64,000 nt of DNA. Source: an uncultured Anaerolineaceae bacterium (GTDB taxonomy: Bacteria; Chloroflexota; Dehalococcoidia; Tepidiformales; Tepidiformaceae). A program made the position numbers and the translations under genes. A model generated the notes under the pieces. The model had not been told where the DNA came from and did not search any database. It worked only from the letters and a program-made list of their open reading frames with translations. Where the stretch lies: NCBI GenBank assembly GCA_964508715.1, contig CAZDUX010000011.1, forward strand, positions 1 through 64,000. Reading direction: 5' to 3'. Shown in pieces: positions 20,995-60,748 of this stretch (position 1 is its first letter; every line of letters starts with the position of its first letter).

Positions 20995-21004
20995 CCGGTA
21001 CCGG
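20995..21004. promoter_or_regulatory. perfect 10-bp palindrome CCGGTACCGG in TetR/Ddn divergent intergenic region (candidate TetR operator)
   Basis: Seen in sequence between TetR start (20973) and divergent Ddn-like gene; extended dyad TGACCGGTACCGGGG. Confidence 0.35.
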
Positions 21005-21096
21005 GGCCATTTCATATAGTGTTGGGCATCAAGTCTAACGTCGTTCGACTCGACAACGGCGTACTCTCGAGGCAGAGCTCTGGAGGACCGGCAGCC

Positions 21097-21540
21097 ATGA
21101 CCGTGAGCTATTACAGCAAGCCCAACTGGGCGATGAAGCACGTATTGAACCCCGCAATCGAGCTGGTGACGAAGTCGGGATTGAGCCTCCGCGGCTCACG
21201 CGTGCTGGCGGTGCAGGGCCGCAAGAGCGGGAAGTGGTACACCACACCCGTGAACCTGCTGGAGTTCGAAGGCGGGCGTTACCTGGTGGCGCCGCGGGGC
21301 GAGACCGGCTGGGTGAAGAACATCCGCTCGAGCAAGACAGGCATCGTTCGGCTGGGACGGAAGAGCGAGCCCATCGCGGTCGAGGAGGTGGCCGACGACC
21401 AGAAGCTGCCGGTCCTGCGCGAGTACCTGAGGCGCTGGTCTGCAGAGACCGCGGGCATGTTCGGCCTGTCGAAGAAGCCATCGGACGAGCAGATCGCGGC
21501 GATTGTGAGCCGCCACCCGGTGTTCCGAATCGTAGGGTAG
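21097..21540 (+). CDS. deazaflavin(F420)-dependent nitroreductase family protein (Ddn/DUF385-like)
   Basis: PNWAMKHVLNPAIELVTKSG...VLAVQGRKSGKWYTTPVNLLEFEGGRYLVAPRGE.WVKN, hallmark of Ddn/PNPOx-like split-barrel family; divergent from TetR. Confidence 0.75.
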   Translation: MTVSYYSKPNWAMKHVLNPAIELVTKSGLSLRGSRVLAVQGRKSGKWYTTPVNLLEFEGGRYLVAPRGETGWVKNIRSSKTGIVRLGRKSEPIAVEEVADDQKLPVLREYLRRWSAETAGMFGLSKKPSDEQIAAIVSRHPVFRIVG

Positions 21541-21561
21541 GACACCGGGAACTCCTGGAGG

Positions 21562-23595
21562 TTGCCTGGCGTCTGGGGATGTAGACGGGGCGATTCCCGC
21601 ACGGATGACGAGATGGGCGATATCGATGCAGGCATGACGCTGCAGAACGCTGCCGGACGGCTGAGCGAGCCTGAGCAGCGATTATATGCGCTCGCGAAGC
21701 AGCCGATCCCGCTGGCGGAGGTCGCCGTGCGACTGGGCGTGAGTATCGCCGAGGCTGACCGGAGGGTTGGCTTGCTGTGCGCGACGCTCGGGTTCGCGGA
21801 CAGGGCGGCGTTGCAGTTGGGCGCCGTGGCGGCACCCCCGGAAGCGGAGAGCGATGGCGGAGCGGACGTTCCTGAGCGAGTGGCGCGGACGTTCTCGCGG
21901 CGGGCGGTGCTGGTTGCCGCTGGCGCCGGCCTGGCAGCCGTGGCAGCCGGTGGAACCTGGGCCGCATCGTGGCGGGGCACATCGAAGCGGCCAACGGTGG
22001 CAGACGTAACGCCAACGGCCCTTCCAACCGCCGTAGATGAGGGGCGAATCGAGCGGGACGACAGCTGGGAGCGGCGGGACTTCCCGGGGCTATCACCGCT
22101 GCGGTGGCCGGCCGCAGTGTACTTCGTGAAGGTGACCGACGGGTCAGTCGAGGGGTACCAAACCACCCTGGCCGACGCGCCCGCGGTGTTCGCCAATGGA
22201 GAGGTGCTGGCCGCAGGTATCCCCGGGGCAGCGGTTTGCAAGGCCTACCATCGAACGCTGGCGCAGGGATATCGCTGGGCGGGACAGTCGCGCAGCCTGG
22301 TGGCGGCAACCGTGGACTGGATGCTGTTTGAAGAGCTCGGGCCACGGGGCGGAGGCCCGGGCGAGCCAACCGGGAAGTTCCGGATGGTCGGCTACAACCT
22401 GCAGGAGTTGCTGCGATTCGAGACGCCGGGAGGGACGCAATTCCAGCAGCGGGTGCTCGTTTCGCCGGATGGGACGCGGGCCGCGATCTGGAGCCGGACG
22501 AGCACAGAGGCGAGCCTGCTTCGGGTGAACCTCGAGAGCGGGGCCATCGAGACACGGTTCGATCTCGAGCTCCAGCCCCCGCTGCAAGTGTCCTCGACAA
22601 CACCGGTGCAGATCCCGGGGACGAATGACCTGATGTTCGAGATCAACCTGTACGGGGGCCCCAATGCACAGCCGCCGCGGCAGGTCCGGGCGAGGTGGGA
22701 TGGCGACTGGAGCGAGTTGTACGCGTTGCCGGGCGAGCGCATCCACTCGTGGTCGCCTGGCGGGAGGATGAGCCTGGCCGAGGTTGCGCTGCGTGGTTTC
22801 ACCGGTGGTGGGGGCGAAGGCGGGGGTGAAAACTGGCCGGCGACCATCGTCCGAAACAGCGAAGGCCAGATGAGGACGCGCGTACTTTCCGCGGCGCTGT
22901 ATTACGGTGATGGCGTTACGGGCCGCTGGCTTGCTGATGGGTCGGGGTTCGTGGCGCTAGTCGACAATGGGCGGACCGAGGGGCCCGGGTGGGATCGCAT
23001 CGGGTACGCGATATTCAGTCCCAATGGCATCCTCCAGGAACGGTTGCCGCTGCCCGAGTACGATAAGTCGCACCAGACGTGGTGGCGGTCACTGTTCTAC
23101 ATGGGGGCGACGCCGCACCCGACGGACCCGAACCTGCTGGCATTCGGGCGGACGGCGGTCTATAACCGGGCGACGAAGCAGTGGATGCATGTGGACTTCG
23201 ATGACCCCGCGGGGCCAGCACACCTCAATCCCTGGTCGGGGAGGGCGAACGAGATTGTGCTCTCCGTACCACATCTCGGGCACGGCGGGGGAGGAATTCC
23301 GGCGCTGCTGCCGCCAAGGGCGTGGCCGGTCGGTGTCCCCGGCTTCCGTGTCGAAGGGACGGGCGACTGCGTAAACATGCGCGAGTCTCCGTCGTTGCAG
23401 GCGAAGGCGATCACCTGCCTCGTAGATGGCACGTATACTGAGGTCACCACGCCGCCGGGTCCGTCCAGCAACATCTCGTTCATCCGCAACGAAGAGGGCG
23501 CGTGGGCGTACGTGACGACCGGGAGGTTGTCGGGCTGGGTGTCGTCGGCGTACCTGCGGTGGGACGTGCCAGGGCCGGATGACATCGCGCTGTGA
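21562..23595 (+). CDS. membrane-anchored protein: N-terminal sigma-70 region-4/LuxR-like HTH, one TM helix, large extracytoplasmic domain, C-terminal SH3b domain
   Basis: HTH-like LSEPEQRLYALAKQPIPLAEVAVRLGVSIAEADRRVGLL; TM RRAVLVAAGAGLAAVAAGGTWAASW; C-terminal SH3_3-like GDCVNMRESPSLQAKAITCLVDGTYTEV..GWVSSAYL; start uncertain. Confidence 0.55.
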   Translation: MPGVWGCRRGDSRTDDEMGDIDAGMTLQNAAGRLSEPEQRLYALAKQPIPLAEVAVRLGVSIAEADRRVGLLCATLGFADRAALQLGAVAAPPEAESDGGADVPERVARTFSRRAVLVAAGAGLAAVAAGGTWAASWRGTSKRPTVADVTPTALPTAVDEGRIERDDSWERRDFPGLSPLRWPAAVYFVKVTDGSVEGYQTTLADAPAVFANGEVLAAGIPGAAVCKAYHRTLAQGYRWAGQSRSLVAATVDWMLFEELGPRGGGPGEPTGKFRMVGYNLQELLRFETPGGTQFQQRVLVSPDGTRAAIWSRTSTEASLLRVNLESGAIETRFDLELQPPLQVSSTTPVQIPGTNDLMFEINLYGGPNAQPPRQVRARWDGDWSELYALPGERIHSWSPGGRMSLAEVALRGFTGGGGEGGGENWPATIVRNSEGQMRTRVLSAALYYGDGVTGRWLADGSGFVALVDNGRTEGPGWDRIGYAIFSPNGILQERLPLPEYDKSHQTWWRSLFYMGATPHPTDPNLLAFGRTAVYNRATKQWMHVDFDDPAGPAHLNPWSGRANEIVLSVPHLGHGGGGIPALLPPRAWPVGVPGFRVEGTGDCVNMRESPSLQAKAITCLVDGTYTEVTTPPGPSSNISFIRNEEGAWAYVTTGRLSGWVSSAYLRWDVPGPDDIAL

Positions 23596-23722
23596 GGCAA
23601 CGACTGAGTGACGGACTTCACGGTCCCGGCCGCACCCATGCCGCCAGTGTGAAGCGAATGACAGAATTCTCTTAGCCCCGAGCGAGACACTCGTTCCCAG
23701 CGAAATTGCTGGGAGAGAAACC

Positions 23723-24205
23723 ATGGTGTTCACCTGGGACTGGTATCGGGCGCTGCTGTTCGTGCACGTGGCGTCGGTCGTTGTCGCACTGGGCGCGACA
23801 TTCGCGCTGCCGCTGTTACAGCCGATGGGTGCGCGCGGGGGCGTGCGCACGCTGCGGTTCGTCCTCGAGTTCACGCACAGGCTGGAAACGCGGATCGTCG
23901 GGCCGGGGTCAGGAATCGCCTTCCTATCGGGGCTGGCGCTCATCTTCAACGACCGCACGGGGTACAGTGATGACATGCCGCTCTGGCTGACCGTCGCGGT
24001 CGCGTGGTTCCTGGTCGCCGCGGTGGTGGCGAACGTGTTCCAGGCGCCAAACCTGAAGAAGGCGATCATGCTGCTCGATGCGGTACCGGACGAAGGCCCA
24101 ATGCCACGGGGACTCGGCCCACTGGCCAGCCGGATGCGGATCACCGGGCAGATGCTGAGCGTCTCGACCATCGGGGTACTGCTCCTGATGGTCTGGAAGC
24201 CCTGA
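23723..24205 (+). CDS. integral membrane protein (DUF2269-like, 4 TM)
   Basis: 160 aa with 4 predicted TM helices; RBS-proximal hairpin upstream. Confidence 0.55.
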   Translation: MVFTWDWYRALLFVHVASVVVALGATFALPLLQPMGARGGVRTLRFVLEFTHRLETRIVGPGSGIAFLSGLALIFNDRTGYSDDMPLWLTVAVAWFLVAAVVANVFQAPNLKKAIMLLDAVPDEGPMPRGLGPLASRMRITGQMLSVSTIGVLLLMVWKP

Positions 24206-24219
24206 AGGAAGTTGCGAGT

Positions 24220-24246
24220 GCGGCGCCCGGTTGATGCCGGCGCCGC
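24220..24246. terminator. GC-rich hairpin (8-bp stem GCGGCGCC/GGCGCCGC, 10-nt loop) between convergent genes; candidate bidirectional terminator
   Basis: Lies between stop of DUF2269 gene (24205, +) and C-terminal end of flotillin gene (24262, -); followed by T-rich TTCGCGATT. Confidence 0.3.
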
Positions 24247-24261
24247 TTCGCGATTGAGTGA

Positions 24262-24603
24262 CTACGACGGGTTCGGGGCGTTGCCGTTACCGTTCGGTGA
24301 TGCAGGTGCCGAGCCGTTACGGTTCTGCTGGAGGAGTTGGGCGACGAATGCGGTGAAGACGTTGCCGCCGCCGTCGCCATCCCCGCTGACGAGTATATCG
24401 GGGGTGATCTTGAGCGAGGCGCCGGAGACGGACTTCATGACCTCGATTGCGGCGAGGTTGCCCTGTCCGACGGCCGCGACCTGCTTCTCGTAGGCTTCGG
24501 CGGTGGCGTTGCCCACGGCAAGGATGCGCGCACCCTCGGCTGTGCCCTCGACTTCGACAGCGCGGGCGCGGCCCTCGGCTTCGATGATGGTCTTCTGCCT
24601 GGT
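24262..24603 (-). CDS. in-frame continuation of flotillin gene after TAA (flotillin C-terminal domain)
   Basis: Same frame as 24604..26298, separated only by TAA at 24604..24606; translation ...AEAYEKQVAAVGQGNLAAIEVMK...ITPDILVSGDGDGGG matches flotillin C-terminal conserved region. Confidence 0.55.
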   Translation of the reverse strand, partial: TRQKTIIEAEGRARAVEVEGTAEGARILAVGNATAEAYEKQVAAVGQGNLAAIEVMKSVSGASLKITPDILVSGDGDGGGNVFTAFVAQLLQQNRNGSAPASPNGNGNAPNPS

Positions 24604-26298
24604 TTACTCGGCCACCTGGACACCGATCTGGGCGGTTACGAGGTTGATCTGCTGGTTCGCCTGGGCGCGGGTGTTCTCGGTGGCGATGCGCTCCTTTTCG
24701 GCCTTCTGCTGTTCGACGAACATCGCCTGCTGCTGGGCGGCGATGACGCGGCCCTGCTGAATCTCCATGAGTTCGGGCGGGAGGATGATCTGGCTGATGA
24801 GGACGGAGACGCACTCGCAGTGGTACTTCTCGAGTTCTTCGCGGGCGCGGGCCTGCGCTTTGAGCTGTTCCTCGGCGCGGTCCTGCATGAACGCCATCGC
24901 CTCGGATGACGATGCCTGGTTGCGGAAGGAGGAGTCGATCATCGGGTGGATGACATGATCGATGAGGTTCTCGACGGAGCCGATCTTGGCGACCATGAGC
25001 GGCGCCTGGTCGGGGCGGACGCGGATAACGACCTTGACGCTGACGCGCATCTCGAAGCCATCGCGGCTGGTGACGGCAAGCGGGTTGAAAAGTTGCATGC
25101 TCCGTGGCTGGGATGCGACGTCGGGGCCATCATCGGGGACGTTGATAACGCCCTCGTTGGCCCAGTCGATGGTGAGGTTGGTGGTGGGGACGATGTAGGC
25201 GATGTAGGCCCAGCGGTTAAGGTAGTAGACACCCGGGCCAGCGACCTCGGCGAGGATGCCCCGATAGCCGTCGGGGACGACATACCGCTCGAGGCCTTCC
25301 TTGAGGTGGTATTCGTCGGACATCGGCGGCGGTTCCTTGCCAACGTTTGAGACGAGGACGGCAACCTCTCCTCTCTGGATGACGGCGACCTCGTCGAGCT
25401 TCACATCGAAGAGGAGCGGGTTGATGTAGTACGTACCGGGGCGGAGGAGGTCGTACTGTGGGCCACGCTGGCCACCGTTGCGGAGAAACGCCTCGCTGTC
25501 CTGGAAGTCGCTGTGGCCTTCGACATGGATGGCGACGAGTTCACCTTCGGGGAGGGGTTCGCCATCCTTTGCCGTAACCAGTCCGATCTGGTTGGCGGAC
25601 ACGACCGTGGCGCCGCGAGTCTCGACGGCGAACATGTCGGTGTTGATGCGATAGCGGCCGGGGAGGAGGACTTCAATCTGGGGCCCGCGCTGGCCACCAA
25701 GTTCAAGGAACGCCTGCCCGTCCTGGAAGGCGGTGTGGCCTTCGACCCTGCTTGCGAGAAGGCGGCCGGGCGACATGGGGTCGCCATCGCGCGCACTGAC
25801 GACGCCGACCTGGCCGGGTGGGATGGTGATGGCGGGTTCGAGCCGGATGCGGAACAGGTATGTGTTGATGCGGTACTTGCCGGGGGCAAGGATATCGACC
25901 TGCGGTCCCTTCTGACCGCCGTTGCGGAGAAATGCCTCGCCGTCCTGGAAGGTGTCGTGGCTATCGACGTGGCGGCCGAAGATGCGGCCGGGGTCGAGTG
26001 CCCGGCCATCGATAGATTCGACGATGCCGACAGACTCATCGTCGACCAGGATCATGGCGTCCTTCGAGACCTTGTAGAGAAACGGAGGCAGGAAGTGGAG
26101 GCCGGGAGGGAGGACACGAGCCTGGATACCGATCTCGCCTTGCATGGCGATGACACGGCCCTCGGGCAGCCCTTTGCCGACATAGCGGCGTTCGAGAATG
26201 CCGACCTGTTGGCCGCCAATATTGACGAGCATGCGGCCAGCACTGACCAGGATGAGGAATACTGCCAGGATGACGGCAAGGACGATGAGTGCGGCCAT
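24604..26298 (-). CDS. flotillin-like SPFH/band-7 domain protein, N-terminal TM anchor, three to four internal ~65-aa repeats, ends at in-frame TAA
   Basis: N-terminal TM (AALIVLAVILAVFLILV); repeats with GH..FQDGEAFLRNGGQRGPQ..L.PG.YRIN core; SPFH-like segment (FEMRVSVKVVIRV...); flotillin-type Ala/Glu/Gln-rich coiled coil at C-terminus. Confidence 0.85.
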   Translation of the reverse strand: MAALIVLAVILAVFLILVSAGRMLVNIGGQQVGILERRYVGKGLPEGRVIAMQGEIGIQARVLPPGLHFLPPFLYKVSKDAMILVDDESVGIVESIDGRALDPGRIFGRHVDSHDTFQDGEAFLRNGGQKGPQVDILAPGKYRINTYLFRIRLEPAITIPPGQVGVVSARDGDPMSPGRLLASRVEGHTAFQDGQAFLELGGQRGPQIEVLLPGRYRINTDMFAVETRGATVVSANQIGLVTAKDGEPLPEGELVAIHVEGHSDFQDSEAFLRNGGQRGPQYDLLRPGTYYINPLLFDVKLDEVAVIQRGEVAVLVSNVGKEPPPMSDEYHLKEGLERYVVPDGYRGILAEVAGPGVYYLNRWAYIAYIVPTTNLTIDWANEGVINVPDDGPDVASQPRSMQLFNPLAVTSRDGFEMRVSVKVVIRVRPDQAPLMVAKIGSVENLIDHVIHPMIDSSFRNQASSSEAMAFMQDRAEEQLKAQARAREELEKYHCECVSVLISQIILPPELMEIQQGRVIAAQQQAMFVEQQKAEKERIATENTRAQANQQINLVTAQIGVQVAE

Positions 26299-26532
26299 TG
26301 GGGAGTCTCTTTCATTCTTTCTGGGCTATAGAACCGCCCGCTAAGCCCGGTGGACGCCCTGAGCAGCTTTGCGTCCTCCAACCGATCGGCCTCAATCTAC
26401 GCCGGCGCGTGGGCGGGATCCATATGGGAAATCCTGATTTGCGCGTGGCTCGTGAGGCTGCGCCACAACCCGGGTAACGGCCCCGGTACCACTGCTGCGT
26501 GCATGCCTGCGGCAACGCACCCGGCGGGAAGC

Positions 26533-27006
26533 TCACTTCTGTTCGCGGGATATGGTTTTCTTCTCGGGATGATGGACGAGCAGGACGGGGCGGTCGGCCG
26601 CACGGACGACTCCCTCGGCGACGCTGCCGAGGATGACGCGGCGCCAGCCACTGCGGCCATGAGTGCCGATAACGATGACCCCGGCATCCCAGGCTCCTGC
26701 CGCATCGACGATGGTCTGGGGGACGGAGCCTCCGAGACACTCTATGGCTTCCGTCTCTGCCTCGATCCCGGCGTCTCGCGCGGTTGTAGCGGCGGCGGCC
26801 AGGACCTGGCGGGCGGCGGCAAGCAGGGGCCGTTCGATGGCGGCTTCGTCGGCGCCTTCACCGGTGAGGGCGGCGGCAGGTACATCGACGATAGCCACAA
26901 CGCGAACGGACGCGCCAGGCACATGGTTTGCGAGCCGGATGGCTTCGGCGAGCGCTGCGTCGGATGTCTCGGAACCGTCAACTGCAACGAGAATGCGCTG
27001 GTACAC
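26533..27006 (-). CDS. universal stress protein (UspA family)
   Basis: ILVAVDGSETSDAAL...VVIGTHGRSGWRRVILGSVAEGVVRAADRPVLLV ATP-binding Usp pattern. Confidence 0.85.
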   Translation of the reverse strand: MYQRILVAVDGSETSDAALAEAIRLANHVPGASVRVVAIVDVPAAALTGEGADEAAIERPLLAAARQVLAAAATTARDAGIEAETEAIECLGGSVPQTIVDAAGAWDAGVIVIGTHGRSGWRRVILGSVAEGVVRAADRPVLLVHHPEKKTISREQK

Positions 27007-27085
27007 AAACCGCCTCCGCTATGGTGGAGCGGGACAGCAGCGATGCTGTGTCTCCTTTCGATGATAGCGGCAGAGGTGGGCCAGT

Positions 27086-27860
27086 AGCCAAAGGGTAGCG
27101 GCGCGGGCGAGGCTGGGCCCTCCATTACCGCATGGCGGCGATACGGAACGGTATACTGGCGGCATGGCCATCCGAACCCCACGACCGAAACGGCAGGAGC
27201 GGCAGGCGGCTTCGCGCTACCACGGTATGCGCATGACCGAGAAGGAATACCTGGCGCTGCCGGAGGAGAAGCCGTATCTCGAGTACGTCGACGGAGTCGT
27301 GCTGCAAAAACCCATGCCAAACATCGAACACACGCTGCTGACAGGCCATCTGATCATTGAACTTGGGCTTTACGCCCGGCGCACAGGAGGGCACGTGGGC
27401 CCCGAGGCGCGAACACGGTTCACAGATGGTGCGAACTACCGGCTTCCAGACGTCTCGTACTGGACTTCGCCGGGCAGGCCAGCGAACGATTCGGTGCCGA
27501 CCCTCGCAATCGAGGTGCGATCACCGGGCCAAACGATGGGGGAGCTCCGCGAGAAGTGCCGGTTTTTCCGGCGAAACGGAGTCGAGGTGGCGTGGCTCGC
27601 TGACCCGGAGTCCCGCACCGTCGAGGTCTTCGAGGAGGGACGAGACGCGGAAGCCCTCGCGGCCCCGGCCATCCTCACCTCTCCCGCACTTCCAGGGTTC
27701 GCGCTCGACCTCGCCGGTCTGTTTGGGGTGCTCGATTCCTGACGGTTCATCGTAGCCGTGACGGTCCGTGATCGGCAGGCGCGTCATGCGGCGGCCCGGT
27801 CAGTGGTCCACACGGTGAGCGCTCACTCCTGAGAGGCGGGCAGGGTTCCGGTGGGCCGGT
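27086..27860. repeat. tandem direct repeat, copy 1 (about 775 bp, carries Uma2 gene with its upstream region)
   Basis: Near-identical to 27861..28635; period 775 bp from ORF offsets (27164 vs 27939; 27742 vs 28517). Confidence 0.85.
27164..27742 (+). CDS. Uma2 family endonuclease (DUF820, restriction-endonuclease-like fold), copy 1
   Basis: 192 aa; PD-(D/E)xK-like region NYRLPDVSYWTSP...PTLAIEVRSP characteristic of Uma2/DUF820. Confidence 0.8.
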   Translation: MAIRTPRPKRQERQAASRYHGMRMTEKEYLALPEEKPYLEYVDGVVLQKPMPNIEHTLLTGHLIIELGLYARRTGGHVGPEARTRFTDGANYRLPDVSYWTSPGRPANDSVPTLAIEVRSPGQTMGELREKCRFFRRNGVEVAWLADPESRTVEVFEEGRDAEALAAPAILTSPALPGFALDLAGLFGVLDS

Positions 27861-28635
27861 AGCCAAAGGGTAGCGGTGTGGACGAGGCTGGGTGCTTCAT
27901 TATCGCATGGCGGCGATACGGAACGGTATACTGGCGGCATGGCCATCCGAACCCCACGACCGAAACGGCAGGAGCGGCAGGCGGCTTCGCGCTACCACGG
28001 TATGCGCATGACCGAGAAGGAATACCTGGCGCTGCCGGAGGAGAAGCCGTATCTCGAGTACGTCGACGGAGTCGTGCTGCAAAAACCCATGCCAAACATC
28101 GAACACACGCTGCTGACAGGCCATCTGATCATTGAACTTGGGCTTTACGCCCGGCGCACAGGAGGGCACGTGGGCCCCGAGGCGCGAACACGGTTCACAG
28201 ATGGTGCGAACTACCGGCTTCCAGACGTCTCGTACTGGACTTCGCCGGGCAGGCCAGCGAACGATTCGGTGCCGACCCTCGCAATCGAGGTGCGATCACC
28301 GGGCCAAACGATGGGGGAGCTCCGCGAGAAGTGCCGGTTTTTCCGGCGAAACGGAGTCGAGGTGGCGTGGCTCGCTGACCCGGAGTCTCGCACCGTCGAG
28401 GTCTTCGAGGAGGAACGAGACGCGGAAGCCCTCACGGCCCCGGCCGTCCTCACATCTCCCGCGCTTCCAGGGTTCGCGCTCGACCTCGCCGGCCTGTTTG
28501 GGGTGCTCGATTCCTGACGGTTCCTCGTCGCAGGAAGGTTCCGTGATCGGCAGGCACGTAACGGGGCGGCCCGGTCACCAGTACACGAGCGTGCATGGCC
28601 TGTGGCAAGCGCGATGCCGGCCATGATGCTGGCCG
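27861..28635. repeat. tandem direct repeat, copy 2
   Basis: About 98% identical to copy 1 through the coding part; 3' ends diverge. Confidence 0.85.
27939..28517 (+). CDS. Uma2 family endonuclease, copy 2 (4 aa substitutions relative to copy 1)
   Basis: Start refined to MAIRTPRP within 213-aa ORF; differs at EEGRD>EEERD, LAAPAI>LTAPAV. Confidence 0.8.
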   Translation: MAIRTPRPKRQERQAASRYHGMRMTEKEYLALPEEKPYLEYVDGVVLQKPMPNIEHTLLTGHLIIELGLYARRTGGHVGPEARTRFTDGANYRLPDVSYWTSPGRPANDSVPTLAIEVRSPGQTMGELREKCRFFRRNGVEVAWLADPESRTVEVFEEERDAEALTAPAVLTSPALPGFALDLAGLFGVLDS

Positions 28636-33456: not shown

Positions 33457-34404
33457 ATGAGCGTGGGCTTCTTGATACCCGGCCCCGCGAGGTGTAGAAG
33501 CGGGCGCATCATGAACGAGAAGCTGAACTCAGACCATCGCATCTTCGTCAGCTACATCGACAAGTCCCGCGAGTACTACCTCGCGCAGGGCTATGGGAAC
33601 CCTTACCGCTGGGCACACTTCGACGAGGTCCCCTTTGGCAGGTTGGCGAGGCCGCTGAGTGAATCGCGAATCGGCCTCGTGACAACGGCAAGCCTCCCCC
33701 AACCGGAACCCGCACCCGATTCATTCGCCATTGCTCCAGTGGTGTACGCGGCCCCGACGGACCCGGCCCCCACAAGCCTCTATACCGACCACCGGTTCTG
33801 GGATAAAGACGCCACGCACACACACGATATCGACTCGTTTGCGCCGATCAACCGGCTGCGCGAAGCCGAAGCGGCGGGCAAGATCGGCAGTCTGTCGCCG
33901 CGGTTCTATGGCATCCCCACCGTTTATAGCCAGCGCCAGACAATGGAATCGGACTGCCCCGCACTCCTCGGGCTTTGCCGCGAAGATGGGGTGGATGCGG
34001 CGATCCTCGTGGCTCTCTGACCAGTCTGTCACCAGACCGTGAGTCTGGCGGCAAGGCACCTCGAAGAAGCGGGTATTCCGACGGTGGTTGTTGGGTCGGC
34101 CCGCGACATCGTGGAGCAATGCGGAGTTGCCCGGTTCCTGTTCACCGACTTCCCGCTTGGCAATCCGTGCGGCGCCCCTTACGACCCGGCGATGCAGACA
34201 GCGATCGTGGGCATGGCGCTGGAATTGCTGGAGTCGGCACGCATGCCCCGCACCACGGTGCAGACACCGTTTCGCTGGCCAAACGATGACTGGCGGCAGG
34301 ACTTCATGCGCTTCGACCATCTCACGGCAGAGGAACTCCGGGAGATGGGTGAGGGCCGCCGCCGGCGCCAGGCCGAACAACACCCGGTACGCGCAAGCGG
34401 ATAG
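33457..34404 (+). CDS. GrdB/PrdB-family (glycine/betaine/sarcosine/D-proline reductase component B-like) selenoprotein; Sec encoded by in-frame TGA at 34018..34020
   Basis: ORFs 33457..34020 and 34039..34404 are in the same frame separated by TGA; joined translation gives ...DAAILVAL-U-PVCHQTVSLAARHLEEAGIPTVVV, matching the U-x-x-C-H...AGIPT active-site region of PrdB/GrdB; upstream region resembles GrdB (INRLREAEAAGKIGSL..FYGIPTVYS); start may be 33511 (MNEKL). Confidence 0.7.
34032..34048 (+). promoter_or_regulatory. candidate bacterial SECIS hairpin (CCAGAC-CGUGA-GUCUGG) starting 11 nt after the UGA
   Basis: 6-bp stem plus 5-nt loop located at +12..+28 from TGA, the spacing used by bacterial SelB-dependent SECIS elements. 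Confidence 0.4.
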
Positions 34405-53430: not shown

Positions 53431-54282
53431 ATGTCCACCGCCACCTCCGCACGCTATTCAGTCGACGAACTGCGCGACATCGCGAAGCGCGTCCGCACCC
53501 ACATCGTCCAGATGGTTTTTGATGCCCAGAGCGGCCACCCGGGCGGTTCGCTCTCGGCCGTCGACCTCGGGGTCTCACTCTTCTGGAACCACCTGCGTAT
53601 CGACCCGGCGAACTCGAATGACCCGGACCGTGACCGGTTCTTCCTCTCGAAGGGGCACGCAACACCGTTCTACTACAGCATCCTGGCCGAGCGCGGGTTC
53701 TTCAGCACCGACCTGCTCGGGGGCTTCCGAACGTTGGGAAGCCCACTGCAGGGGCATCCGTCGATGAGCGCCGCACCCGGGATCGAGATGTCGGGCGGAT
53801 CGCTCGGGCAGGGGTTGTCGTTCGCCATCGGGCAGGCGAAAGCGGGCCAACTCGATGGCCGTGGCTATCGCTGCTGGGTGATGATGGGCGACGGGGAGAT
53901 GAACGAGGGCCAGGTGTGGGAGGCTGCGATGGCGGTGCCTCACTTCGGCCTTGGCGACCGGATCATCGCGATCGTCGATCGCAACGGGCTGCAGAACGAC
54001 GGCTTCGGCGACACCATTATGAAGGTCCATCCGCGCGAGATGTGGAGCGGCTTCGGCTGGCACGTCATCGAATGCGATGGACATGACATGGCCGCAGTCG
54101 ACCAGGCGTTGACCGAGGCGGAGCAACCGGATGAGCGGCCTCGGATCGTGGTCGCACACACCACGAAGGGCAAGGGCGTGAGTTTCATGGAGAACAACGC
54201 CGGGTTCCACGGGAAGGCCCCGACCGCAAGCCAGCTCGAAACGGCGCTGGATGAGATCGCCCGAGGGGAGGGTGGGCTGTGA
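53431..54282 (+). CDS. transketolase, N-terminal (TPP-binding) subunit
   Basis: Start refined to MSTATSARYSVDELRDIAKRVR; GHPGGSLS TPP motif, GDGEMNEGQVWEA. Confidence 0.88.
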   Translation: MSTATSARYSVDELRDIAKRVRTHIVQMVFDAQSGHPGGSLSAVDLGVSLFWNHLRIDPANSNDPDRDRFFLSKGHATPFYYSILAERGFFSTDLLGGFRTLGSPLQGHPSMSAAPGIEMSGGSLGQGLSFAIGQAKAGQLDGRGYRCWVMMGDGEMNEGQVWEAAMAVPHFGLGDRIIAIVDRNGLQNDGFGDTIMKVHPREMWSGFGWHVIECDGHDMAAVDQALTEAEQPDERPRIVVAHTTKGKGVSFMENNAGFHGKAPTASQLETALDEIARGEGGL

Positions 54283-55235
54283 CCAGCACAGAACTCGTAT
54301 CGGCAGCCACGCGCGAGGCGTACCCGAAGGCGCTCATCCAGCTCGTCGAGGATGGCGTGGACGTCGTTGCTATCGACGCTGACCTCTCGGTTTCGACGAT
54401 GGGCTACCAGTTCGGCGAGAAGTACCCGGAGCGCTGGATGACGGTGGGCGTGGCCGAGCAGAACATGGTGGGCATCGGCGCTGGCCTGGCGGCCACGGGA
54501 AAGACGGCGTTCATCGCGAGCTTCGCAGCGTTTCTGCCGGGGCGGTGTTTCGATCAGTTGCGGACGTCGGTTGCCCAGCCACGCGGCGGGATGAACGTGA
54601 AGTGCGTTGCAAGCCACGGCGGGATCACGGTCGGCGAAGACGGCATGAGCGCGCAGGCGATCGAAGACCTCGCGCTGGCGACCTCGCTCATCCCGTTCGA
54701 CGTGGTGGTGCCGGCGGACTTCGAGTCCGCGAAGCAGGCGATCGTGGCTGTCGGGAAGACATCGAAGCCGGCATACGTTCGCACGGGGCGGCCCAAAGTG
54801 GCGGGGATCTACGGGAGCGATTACCGCTTCGAACTCGGGAAGGCGACGCAGTTGCGGCAGGGGAACGATGTGACGCTCATCGCCTGCGGGATTCTCGTCG
54901 GGATCGCAGTGAAGGCGGCCGAGCTGCTCGGGAGCGAAGGCGTGTCGGCACGCGTGGTGGACATGGCCACGATCAAGCCGATCGACCGTGATGCGGTCAT
55001 CGCCGCAGCGAACGACACGGGCGCGATCGTAACGGCCGAGGAACACCAGACGACGGGTGGTCTCGGGACGGCGGTTGCCCGGGTGCTGGCGGAGACGGCG
55101 CCCGTGCCTGTGAGCTTCGTGGGTGTCGATCGCTACGGTACGAGTGGCAAATGGGATGAACTGCTCGGGTATTTCGAACTCACACCGCAGCGGGTTGCCC
55201 AGGCCGCGCGCGACGCCATCGCGCGGAAGCGGTAG
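54279..55235 (+). CDS. transketolase, C-terminal (pyrimidine-binding) subunit
   Basis: Overlaps N-subunit stop; EQNMVGIGAGLA...; split-type transketolase. Confidence 0.88.
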   Translation: MTSTELVSAATREAYPKALIQLVEDGVDVVAIDADLSVSTMGYQFGEKYPERWMTVGVAEQNMVGIGAGLAATGKTAFIASFAAFLPGRCFDQLRTSVAQPRGGMNVKCVASHGGITVGEDGMSAQAIEDLALATSLIPFDVVVPADFESAKQAIVAVGKTSKPAYVRTGRPKVAGIYGSDYRFELGKATQLRQGNDVTLIACGILVGIAVKAAELLGSEGVSARVVDMATIKPIDRDAVIAAANDTGAIVTAEEHQTTGGLGTAVARVLAETAPVPVSFVGVDRYGTSGKWDELLGYFELTPQRVAQAARDAIARKR

Positions 55236-55652
55236 CTATTCGGGGAGCAGGGTGAACCGCTCGACGTGGCGCGGGCGGACACGCTCGAAGTGACGGCGGT
55301 CGAGGGTGATGATCGTATCGGCTTTGAGCCGCTCGGCGAGGGCAACGACAGAGGCGTCGGTGCCACCGAGGGGCCAGTCGGCATACTGACGCACGAGTTC
55401 GGCGATCCTGGCCCAGTCTTCGGGTTCGGGAGCGACGACTTCGAAATGCGACAGCCCGGCAAGGAATGTGGCTTCGGCCAGGGGGCCAGCCTTCCGCTCA
55501 ATGAGATACGACGCCTCGGCGACGCAGAGTGCCGGGATGATGAGCAGGAGCCGCGGGTCCTGCAGCGCTGATAGGCATGCGTGATGATGCGGTTCGTCGG
55601 CGATAACCGAAGCGATCAATGGGCCAGCATCGACTATCGCGACCGGCCCCAA
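55236..55652 (-). CDS. type II toxin VapC (PIN domain ribonuclease)
   Basis: PIN pattern LGPVAIVDAGPLIA...D..D; probable TTG start 2 nt after antitoxin stop. Confidence 0.7.
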   Translation of the reverse strand: MGPVAIVDAGPLIASVIADEPHHHACLSALQDPRLLLIIPALCVAEASYLIERKAGPLAEATFLAGLSHFEVVAPEPEDWARIAELVRQYADWPLGGTDASVVALAERLKADTIITLDRRHFERVRPRHVERFTLLPE

Positions 55653-59189: not shown

Positions 59190-59306
59190 CCGCGCTTATC
59201 AAGAGTGGGCAGAGGGATCCGGCCCTGCGAAGCCCCGGCAACCTGCCACCATCGGGCAAGGTGCCAACTCCGGTCTCCCGTCGCGGCGGGAGGAAGATGA
59301 GAGCGA
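59190..59306 (+). promoter_or_regulatory. SAM-I (S-box) riboswitch
   Basis: CUUAUCAAGAGUGGGCAGAGGGAUCCGGCCCUGCGAAGCCCCGGCAACC...GGUGCCAACUCC...GGAAGAUGAGAGCG aligns nearly base-for-base with the B. subtilis yitJ S-box core; P1 halves CUUAUC/GAUGAG. Confidence 0.88.
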
Positions 59307-59494
59307 CTCCGCTCCCCACCATTACGGCCCACGCGGAAACGAGGAGTACCAGGATGCCGTCCTCATTGGGCCGTATGGTCATGCGCTAGCCCCTCGCCGA
59401 AGGGGCTTCCCGCTATCCACCCCCGATCCGCACCGATTTTGCGCGTGCCCTGCCGCACCCGCCATCCCGTGCCCATCGAACGCGGAGCATGACC

Positions 59495-60748
59495 ATGTCC
59501 TATGCAACTGCCCTTCGCTGTCGCGAATGTCATCGCGAATACCCACTCGCCGCACAGCATGTCTGCGAGTTCTGTTTCGGCCCCGTCGAAGTCACCTACG
59601 ACTACGACGCTATCCGCCAGGGAGTCACGCGCGAGCGTATCCAGGCCGGCCCGGCCAGCCTCTGGCGGTACCGCGATTTTCTCCCGGTCGACCCCGACGC
59701 CGCCATCGACATCGGCGCCGGCTTCACCCCGCTCGTTCGTGCGCGAAACCTCGGCAAGGCGCTCGGCCTGAACAACCTCTACATCAAGAACGACACGGTG
59801 AACCCAACCTGGTCGTTCAAGGACCGTGTGGTTGCGGTGGCCGCGAGCCGCGCCCGCGAGCTTGGATTCGAGAAACTGGCCTGCGCGAGCACGGGCAACC
59901 TGGCCAACAGCGTCAGCGCCCACGCCGCCGCCGCCGGGATGGAGGCCGTTGTCTTCATCCCCCACGACCTCGAGGCCGGCAAGGTCGTCGGTTCGGCCAT
60001 CTACAATCCGACACTCGTCAAGGTTCGCGGCAACTACGACGCGGTGAACCGGCTCTGCGCGGAGCTCTCTTCCACCTATCCCTGGGCGTTCGTGAACGTG
60101 AACGTGCGGCCCTACTACAGCGAAGGCTCGAAGACGCTCGGGTTCGAGGTCGCCGAGCAGCTTGGCTGGCGGGCGCCGGACCACTGTGTCGTCCCAATCG
60201 CCAGCGGTTCGCTCTTCGTGAAGATCAAGAAGGGGTTCGAAGAGCTGGCGAAGGCGGGCCTCATCGAGCCAACGAAGACGCGCATGAGCGGCGCGCAGGC
60301 CACCGGCTGTTCGCCGGTTGCTACCGCGTGGGAGGAGGGTTCGATGAACTTCCGGCCCCAGCGCCCCGACACCATCGCCAAGTCGCTCGCCATTGGCAAC
60401 CCGGCCGACGGCTACTACTCGCTCGTCCAGCTGCGCGATACGGGCGGCGCCTGCGGCAACGTGAGCGACCCCGAGATCGTGGCCGGGATGAAGCTCCTTG
60501 CCGAGACCGAGGGCATCTTCGCCGAAACTGCCGGCGGCGTGACCGTTGCCTCGCTCAAACAGCTTGCCGAACAGGGTAGAATTGGGCCCGACGAGGTGAC
60601 GGTGGCGTTCATCACCGGGGCCGGCTTCAAGACCATCGAGGCCGTCACCGGGGCGCTCGAGCCCCCGCTCGAGATCGACGCCACCGTCAGCAGCTTCGAG
60701 CACGCCTTCGAGGCGCGCGGCGCGGCTGCACTCGTGGGTGCGAACTAA
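59495..60748 (+). CDS. threonine synthase homologue (PLP fold-type II) with N-terminal C4 zinc ribbon; candidate MetM-like homocysteine synthase
   Basis: CRECH...CEFC zinc ribbon; NPTWSFKDR PLP-Lys motif, CASTGN, IGNPA, TGAGFK as in ThrC; start chosen at second ATG, 7 nt after GGAG. Confidence 0.85.
   Translation: MSYATALRCRECHREYPLAAQHVCEFCFGPVEVTYDYDAIRQGVTRERIQAGPASLWRYRDFLPVDPDAAIDIGAGFTPLVRARNLGKALGLNNLYIKNDTVNPTWSFKDRVVAVAASRARELGFEKLACASTGNLANSVSAHAAAAGMEAVVFIPHDLEAGKVVGSAIYNPTLVKVRGNYDAVNRLCAELSSTYPWAFVNVNVRPYYSEGSKTLGFEVAEQLGWRAPDHCVVPIASGSLFVKIKKGFEELAKAGLIEPTKTRMSGAQATGCSPVATAWEEGSMNFRPQRPDTIAKSLAIGNPADGYYSLVQLRDTGGACGNVSDPEIVAGMKLLAETEGIFAETAGGVTVASLKQLAEQGRIGPDEVTVAFITGAGFKTIEAVTGALEPPLEIDATVSSFEHAFEARGAAALVGAN

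Follow-up and report, generated by a model that had tools for sequence, protein, structure and literature searches.

SPFH-domain proteins such as HflK/C, prohibitin, stomatin, erlin and flotillin combine a Band_7 domain with an N-terminal membrane helix, long helices that follow the SPFH domain and a conserved carboxy-terminal segment. In the solved SPFH cages the cap is made by the C-terminal domains, and major vault protein (MVP) is also counted as an SPFH-family cage (PMC12624060). Here we analyse a gene whose product is predicted to share this set of features, located on the minus strand of a 64,000-nt stretch of DNA (the window hereafter; positions 1 to 64,000 of contig CAZDUX010000011.1, GenBank assembly GCA_964508715.1) from an uncultured member of the Tepidiformales (Dehalococcoidia, Chloroflexota). 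Its reading frame is interrupted by TAA at codon 565, and this is very probably a recent, lineage-specific nonsense allele (Q565>ochre) of a conserved SPFH gene, loss-of-function or strongly hypomorphic, and hence an incipient pseudogene.

The event is of an ordinary, already-known kind, and nothing points to recoding. As in other strain-level nonsense alleles and incipient pseudogenes of bacteria, a single transition appears to have placed a premature stop at a position held by an invariant sense residue in the orthologues, the downstream frame is intact and homologous, and a close sister strain has the intact gene; nothing substantive separates the locus from that class, although the sister lineage has other lesions in the same gene (an insertion sequence (IS) upstream and a frameshift in one metagenome-assembled genome, MAG). 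Programmed in-frame stops (selenocysteine UGA codons, readthrough sites) resemble it in that the stop is flanked on both sides by homologous coding sequence, but here the codon is TAA, occurs in no orthologue and is accompanied by no recoding element, in contrast to a probable selenocysteine-TGA gene in the same window (33457..34404). The locus is best annotated as one interrupted SPFH gene with an internal stop at codon 565; its entry as a 564-residue gene plus an 84-residue hypothetical gene, or as a recoding candidate, is not warranted.

A premature stop in a conserved reading frame

The truncated coding sequence (24607..26298, minus strand) is an ATG-initiated open reading frame (ORF) of 564 codons, read from 26298 to 24607 and closed by TAA at 24604..24606. 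Translation of this one frame over 26298..24259 reveals a further 113 sense codons after the stop (24265..24603), followed by TAG at 24262..24264; the latter is the ancestral stop of a full-length, 678-codon gene, with the intact 678-residue protein of a sister strain (P0001) ending at the equivalent position. The continuation is not a chance open frame, because its G+C content at third codon positions (GC3) is coding-like (0.82, versus 0.81 in the part upstream of the stop) and because, aligned alone, it matches the C terminus of orthologue P0005 at 78% identity (E 2e-52). The window has a G+C content of 65%, and the codon-position G+C of the post-stop stretch matches that of real genes.

Within the continuation, a GTG-initiated ORF of 84 residues (24262..24516, minus strand) appears in the ORF list and is called as a gene in Logan contigs. 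We read it as a by-product of the interruption and not as an independent gene. In all orthologues this stretch continues the SPFH frame without a break, and the nearest purine-rich motif read from the sequence, GAGGG, lies ~15 nt 5′ of the GTG at 24516, a poor spacing for a ribosome-binding site.

Relatives were searched with the stop masked, using a fused 678-residue query, and the best 120 of more than 5,000 were taken for alignment. All 120 are 659–714 residues long and cover 91–100% of the query; they derive from Dehalococcoidia, from Tepidiformales/Tepidiformaceae and from other Chloroflexota MAGs, and are annotated variously as ‘SPFH domain-containing protein’, ‘YqiK’ or ‘HflC’. The proteins of the nearest genomes (Tepidiformales, Tepidiformaceae, Thermoflexaceae) are 78–82% identical, the window's own species not being a GTDB representative, and full-length homologues at 50–56% identity are held by Nitrospirota and Bacteroidales. 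The column of the stop is glutamine in 120 of 120 homologues, each of which runs on for 102–121 residues beyond it, and mean column conservation is 0.84 for residues 566–650 versus 0.83 for residues 1–564. No stop is found at column 565 in any of these 120 orthologues or in 78 species-representative loci.

These results bear out the initial annotation, which had reported a 564-residue SPFH-like ORF ending at this TAA, with a frame running on to 24262 that encodes a conserved C-terminal segment; the ORF list and translation confirm the coordinates, and the P0005 alignment and the 120 orthologues confirm the segment. It had also proposed looking for a sense codon at this site in orthologues, which is what we find. 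A separate conserved C-terminal gene was rejected, as the orthologues run on past the site and the tail is never split off in them.

Direction, age and reproducibility of the change

Clustering at 90% protein identity groups four members: the intact 678-residue P0001 of the sister strain, with CAA at the site; the 564-residue window product; P0122, a frameshifted 657-residue protein from a MAG; and P0123, intact at 678 residues, more divergent and with Gln at the site. P0001 is encoded on five contigs or assemblies (GCA_009612875.1, GCA_009612915.1, SRR27217539, SRR27217540 and SRR9827768). Sister-strain contigs are 98.95% identical to the window in nucleotide sequence across the gene and carry CAA where the window has TAA (L001 in our locus set). 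Because the residue is Gln in every orthologue and the codon CAA in so similar a strain, the comparison identifies the ochre stop as derived, by a C>T transition from an ancestral CAA (G>A on the plus strand at 24606), and dates it as younger than the ~1% divergence between the two strains.

Up to codon 564, window and sister strain differ by 17 synonymous changes and 1 non-synonymous change, a ratio that indicates purifying selection on the gene until recently. Beyond the stop four codons differ (two synonymous, two non-synonymous), and both non-synonymous changes fall in a variable Gly/Asn/Pro tail.

The TAA haplotype recurs with 100% identity to the window, over 5.6 and 2.7 kb, in two Logan per-run contigs, L006 (SRR22956013, 27 kb, recorded in five samples) and L007 (SRR22956010, one sample). 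The exact 564-residue product is called on both and is also on record from a 113-kb NCBI contig. Among the four members of the 90% cluster, the window haplotype with Gln is not on record. A scan of metagenome contigs by exact pattern, leaving the mutated base open as N, found the known CAA contig WBZR01004885.1 alone and no further allele counts, and a literature search on the run and assembly accessions (SRR229560.., WBZR/WBZO, JAIXKQ and others) found no relevant paper.

Family and architecture

Pfam Band_7 (PF01145) matches residues 342–535 (24694..25275, minus strand) with 82 bits against a cut-off of 23.6 (E 6.9e-23, profile positions 4–174 of 176) and is matched by all 36 aligned family members, so that at the level of sequence the assignment to the SPFH superfamily is solid. 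Of the label ‘flotillin/SPFH’ given in the initial annotation, only the second half stands; a flotillin identity is not established. Flotillin, Vault and MVP-shoulder Pfam models have no match in the 36 full-length members at E ≤ 10, and the 113-residue tail matches no flotillin model of Pfam or NCBIfam at E ≤ 1. The only family other than Band_7 matched by two of the 36 members is SutA-RBD (E 1.3), the rest being single-member matches at E 0.05–9. NCBIfam yielded only a sub-threshold match to HflC, and searches of PDB sequences with the family profile, or with P0001 alone at E up to 10, matched no chain.

An AlphaFold2 model was computed from 36 sequences, none of them below 70% identity to the first, an alignment that lacks diversity; with a mean predicted local distance difference test score (pLDDT) of 58, and below 50 in the SPFH core, it is used for secondary structure and coarse fold matches only. 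The model opens with a hydrophobic helix at residues 2–20 (AALIVLAVILAVFLILVSA; 26239..26295, minus strand), the presumed membrane anchor, which lies in the best-predicted blocks (pLDDT 89 and 78). It continues with β-rich modules to residue ~310, an α/β core, a long helix at 508–554 and a break at 555–564; after the break come a second long helix (565–626), a coil around a conserved LKITPD segment and a short helix (647–660). The second long helix begins at residue 565, in a low-confidence part of the model (pLDDT <50 at 550–565).

Between the anchor and the SPFH domain are three tandem units of 74 residues (residues 89–310; 25369..26034, minus strand), sharing 34–36 identities per pair (~47%) in pairwise local alignments and flanked by two weakly similar, degenerate units. 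Each of the three is predicted as a small β-sheet module (strands at pLDDT ~60–83), in line with the Foldseek matches. Foldseek searches of the PDB with this low-confidence model place MVP chains first (E ~1e-11), with low TM-scores throughout; crystal structures of MVP R1–R7 match at E 4e-5 (TMt ~0.38; TMq ~0.22), and prohibitin, HflK/C, stomatin, erlin and, lower, flotillin at E 2e-7 to 3e-4. The flotillin chains (9l3g and 9bq2) rank 39th–47th (E 1e-4 to 3e-4), behind all of the other groups, and flotillins are not the closest structural relatives in this search.

The protein differs from the SPFH cage proteins in its ~310 extra residues of tandem β repeats between anchor and SPFH domain; it also has neither a PDB sequence match nor a flotillin Pfam domain. 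Flotillin-like YqiK/FloT (COG2268) has a similar order of transmembrane helix, SPFH domain, helical region and C-terminal segment, and several orthologues are labelled ‘uncharacterized membrane protein YqiK’ by JGI, but other orthologues are labelled HflC, only the generic Band_7 is matched, and flotillin chains rank lower in the fold search. The low-confidence model shows the same order of small β-sheet repeats, SPFH-like shoulder, long helix and C-terminal region as MVP, its top fold match, but the present family has an N-terminal membrane anchor, no Pfam Vault/MVP_shoulder match in its 36 members and TM-scores of ~0.2. The bacterial MVP homologues of 10.1101/872010 belong to other phyla and share >50% identity with eukaryotic MVP. 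We propose, tentatively and on the strength of the model, a vault-like repeat/SPFH/helix architecture for this family, which is found in Chloroflexota, Nitrospirota and Bacteroidales and joins a presumed membrane anchor to three to five β repeats, followed by the SPFH domain and predicted long helices. The family itself is of more interest than the mutation, which matters little beyond annotation.

Other lesions of the gene in relatives

The sister lineage, with an intact CAA, carries a 1.26-kb IS5-family element between a Usp gene and the SPFH gene, 43–47 nt upstream of the ATG. The element, seen at L087:1691-2953 and L003:1-470, encodes a 321-residue DDE_Tnp_1 transposase; its ends are GGATTCGCTGAT and ATCAGCGAATCC, the terminal inverted repeats span 12 bp (GGATTCGCTGAT), and the duplicated target is (C)TTAG. 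In the window the site is empty, the blastn breakpoints of L087 overlapping at the (C)TTAG at 26341..26345. Four other sister-lineage contigs break inside or at the element.

The copy of the gene in one sister-lineage MAG (L087:3001-4974; GCA_026928315.1, JAIXKQ010000401.1) has two 4-nt deletions, at codons 514–515 and 520–521 in CAGCAG and GCCGCC contexts, plus one substitution, and encodes a frameshifted 657-residue product (MCZ2110887.1); the gene may have been disrupted a second time, or the assembly may be wrong at this point. Interrupted copies are found in three of 78 species-representative loci, some of them probably MAG errors: L037, with an in-frame stop at the invariant E534 and an N-terminal frame change; L042, with frame changes near codons 95 and 571; and L081, with a stop at Y75 and frame changes. 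Lesions have thus struck the SPFH gene in more than one lineage of the species, a pattern that could reflect relaxed selection in the sampled habitat or tolerance of losing the C terminus, although the events are few. Clustering of lesions at codons 514–571 was considered and rejected: the events are too few, the region was chosen post hoc, and errors together with stop-prone Q/E/K codons account for part of the pattern.

Alternative explanations

A single base in a metagenome-derived assembly of an uncultured organism could be a sequencing or assembly artefact over a true CAA and an intact gene, the more so as the three interrupted species-representative loci include at least one, L042, that looks like a single-base indel error. 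TAA is not a random consensus error, however, because it recurs across runs and assemblers (in contigs assembled separately from six runs and in the NCBI contig, at 100% identity over 2.7–5.6 kb) and is a substitution, not a homopolymer indel; the lack of a Gln-bearing window haplotype on record also counts against an artefact, which we regard as quite improbable. If the TAA is real, it might be decoded, by programmed readthrough, a suppressor tRNA or an altered code, to give the full 678-residue protein. The downstream frame is intact and conserved; the window apparently holds another programmed in-frame stop, the TGA of a PrdB/GrdB-type selenoprotein gene; and near-cognate insertion of glutamine at UAA would restore the ancestral residue. 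Yet UAA is the least leaky of bacterial stops, one expects conservation of a recoding site, whereas 120 orthologues and the sister strain have Gln, and the intact frame is fully explained by a young mutation between strains ~1% apart. Reassignment of TAA was rejected, since the codon closes ~7 other coding-like ORFs in the window. No tRNA gene lies in the 64 kb, and the sole Rfam match at the gathering threshold across the whole window is a distant S-adenosylmethionine (SAM) riboswitch (59193..59303). We hold recoding of any of these kinds to be very improbable. Hardly any weight falls on a functional fission, in which the 564-residue N-terminal protein and the 84-residue protein begun at GTG 24516 would both be made and reassemble: the short ORF does exist in frame and is annotated by automatic gene callers in Logan contigs, but the split is seen in no orthologue, 29 conserved residues (566–594) would be lost, the GTG has no convincing Shine–Dalgarno sequence at a proper distance, and the 84-residue piece has no Pfam match.

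An unlikely but more interesting possibility is that truncation is tolerated or favoured, with the species or family repeatedly shedding its C-terminal cap to leave a functional, capless SPFH scaffold. Apparently independent lesions do fall in the same part of the gene in L087 (codons 514–515 and 520–521), L037 (E534) and L042 (near codon 571), and the 17 synonymous changes against 1 non-synonymous over codons 1–564 would suit a retained N-terminal product. Against this, the lesions are few and the region was picked after the fact; some are probably MAG errors, L037 and L081 having N-terminal lesions too and L042 coming from an indel-prone assembly; the helical region, rich in Q, E and K, offers nonsense mutations a somewhat larger target, holding 13% of the stop-adjacent sites within 8.6% of the length; and over the 120 orthologues conservation of the tail matches that of the remainder, which argues that it is needed. 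A fuller version, in which the window allele is one of several independent cap-shedding events (L087 at 514–521, L037 at 534) that leave the membrane scaffold open and without its cap, a form that would be tolerated or selected for in certain populations and perhaps supplied with a few full-length subunits by rare Gln readthrough at UAA, seems to us decidedly unlikely.

A recent nonsense mutation, which the initial annotation had raised beside a sequencing error and programmed readthrough, is supported by the invariant Gln of the orthologues, the CAA of the sister strain and the recurrence of TAA in independent per-run assemblies. Several considerations weigh against it as a loss-of-function allele or call for caution. 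The reproducibility of TAA is that of assembled contigs, not of reads, and the six Logan runs could stem from a single project or culture and are not necessarily independent in the biological sense. The placement of the stop at a hinge between helices, and with it the predicted loss of the cap, is tentative at the model's mean pLDDT of 58 (<50 at residues 550–565), and the truncated 1–564 product could still be functional.

Consequences of the nonsense allele

What the sequences show is a stop that is derived and reproducible, and a lost part that is conserved. From these we propose that a C>T transition turned the invariant Gln565 codon of this membrane-anchored, ~678-residue SPFH-domain protein into an ochre codon, at which translation would now end. 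The following 339 nt would go untranslated, as a 3′ tail in front of the original stop and the hairpin described below, still coding-like because the mutation is too young for further decay to have set in. If stable, the 564-residue product would retain everything from the anchor through the β repeats and the SPFH domain to the first long helix, and would lack the second long helix, the LKITPD segment and the short helix, along with the variable Gly/Asn/Pro tail. By analogy with the solved cages, such a protein is expected not to assemble into a normal closed oligomer. Since the missing region is no less conserved than the remainder, function has most likely been lost or strongly reduced, whether the gene is now a pseudogene or yields a 564-residue protein without its presumed cap-forming parts; both the structural role and the functional consequence we infer. 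The window allele, a naturally occurring C-terminal truncation, and its intact sister, which differs by 1%, form a pair that lends itself to testing whether assembly requires the C-terminal helix and the cap segment of this uncharacterised family.

A G+C-rich hairpin (24220..24246) sits in the 56 nt that separate the SPFH gene from the convergent DUF2269 gene, after the ancestral stop and not after the premature one. Its arms (24220–24227 and 24239–24246) are 8 nt long and 100% complementary around an 11-nt loop, and it folds on both strands, at −25.9 kcal/mol on the minus strand (z −4.3) and −33.7 kcal/mol on the plus strand (z −4.6). A bidirectional terminator had been suggested here: the hairpin is confirmed, whereas its role as a terminator finds no such backing, the structure having no T/U tract and failing a terminator consensus scan. 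Consensus scans for sigma-70 promoters and intrinsic terminators over 23600..26800 found nothing. We infer only a candidate bidirectional transcription stop, which, lying after the ancestral stop, would still end the transcript of the interrupted gene. No polar effect on downstream genes is expected, because the next gene (DUF2269, 23723..24205) is convergent.

Other features of the window

Two further pairs of ORFs were considered as interrupted genes and rejected: 20995..21540 and 21541..23595, two distinct genes, which gene calls in the sister strain likewise keep apart, and 54255..55235 and 55236..55571, where the downstream stretch has no Pfam match. A probable selenoprotein gene with an in-frame TGA lies at 33457..34404 on the plus strand, as judged from its sequence. 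Its first part, the ORF 33457..34017, matches Pfam GRDB up to the last profile position and ends at TGA 34018..34020, after which the frame runs on for 127 codons with coding-like GC3. With Cys in place of the stop, the joined protein has matches that span the TGA, both to NCBIfam PrdB (E 2.7e-27) and to the selenoprotein B subfamily; the local motif is L-U-P-V-C. A hairpin ~11 nt 3′ of the TGA (CCAGAC-CGUGA-GUCUGG) is a possible selenocysteine insertion sequence element, with a fold z-score of only −1.5.

Two adjacent genes of the Uma2 family (putative restriction endonuclease-like proteins) occupy 27164..27742 and 27819..28517, both on the plus strand, and each is preceded by a copy of an 84-nt segment (27075–27158 and 27850–27933), the copies being 90% identical. 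The SAM riboswitch (RF00162; 59193..59303, plus strand) is full length, scores 79.9 bits and lies 87 nt upstream of a gene for a 452-residue pyridoxal phosphate-dependent enzyme (PALP; 59390..60748).

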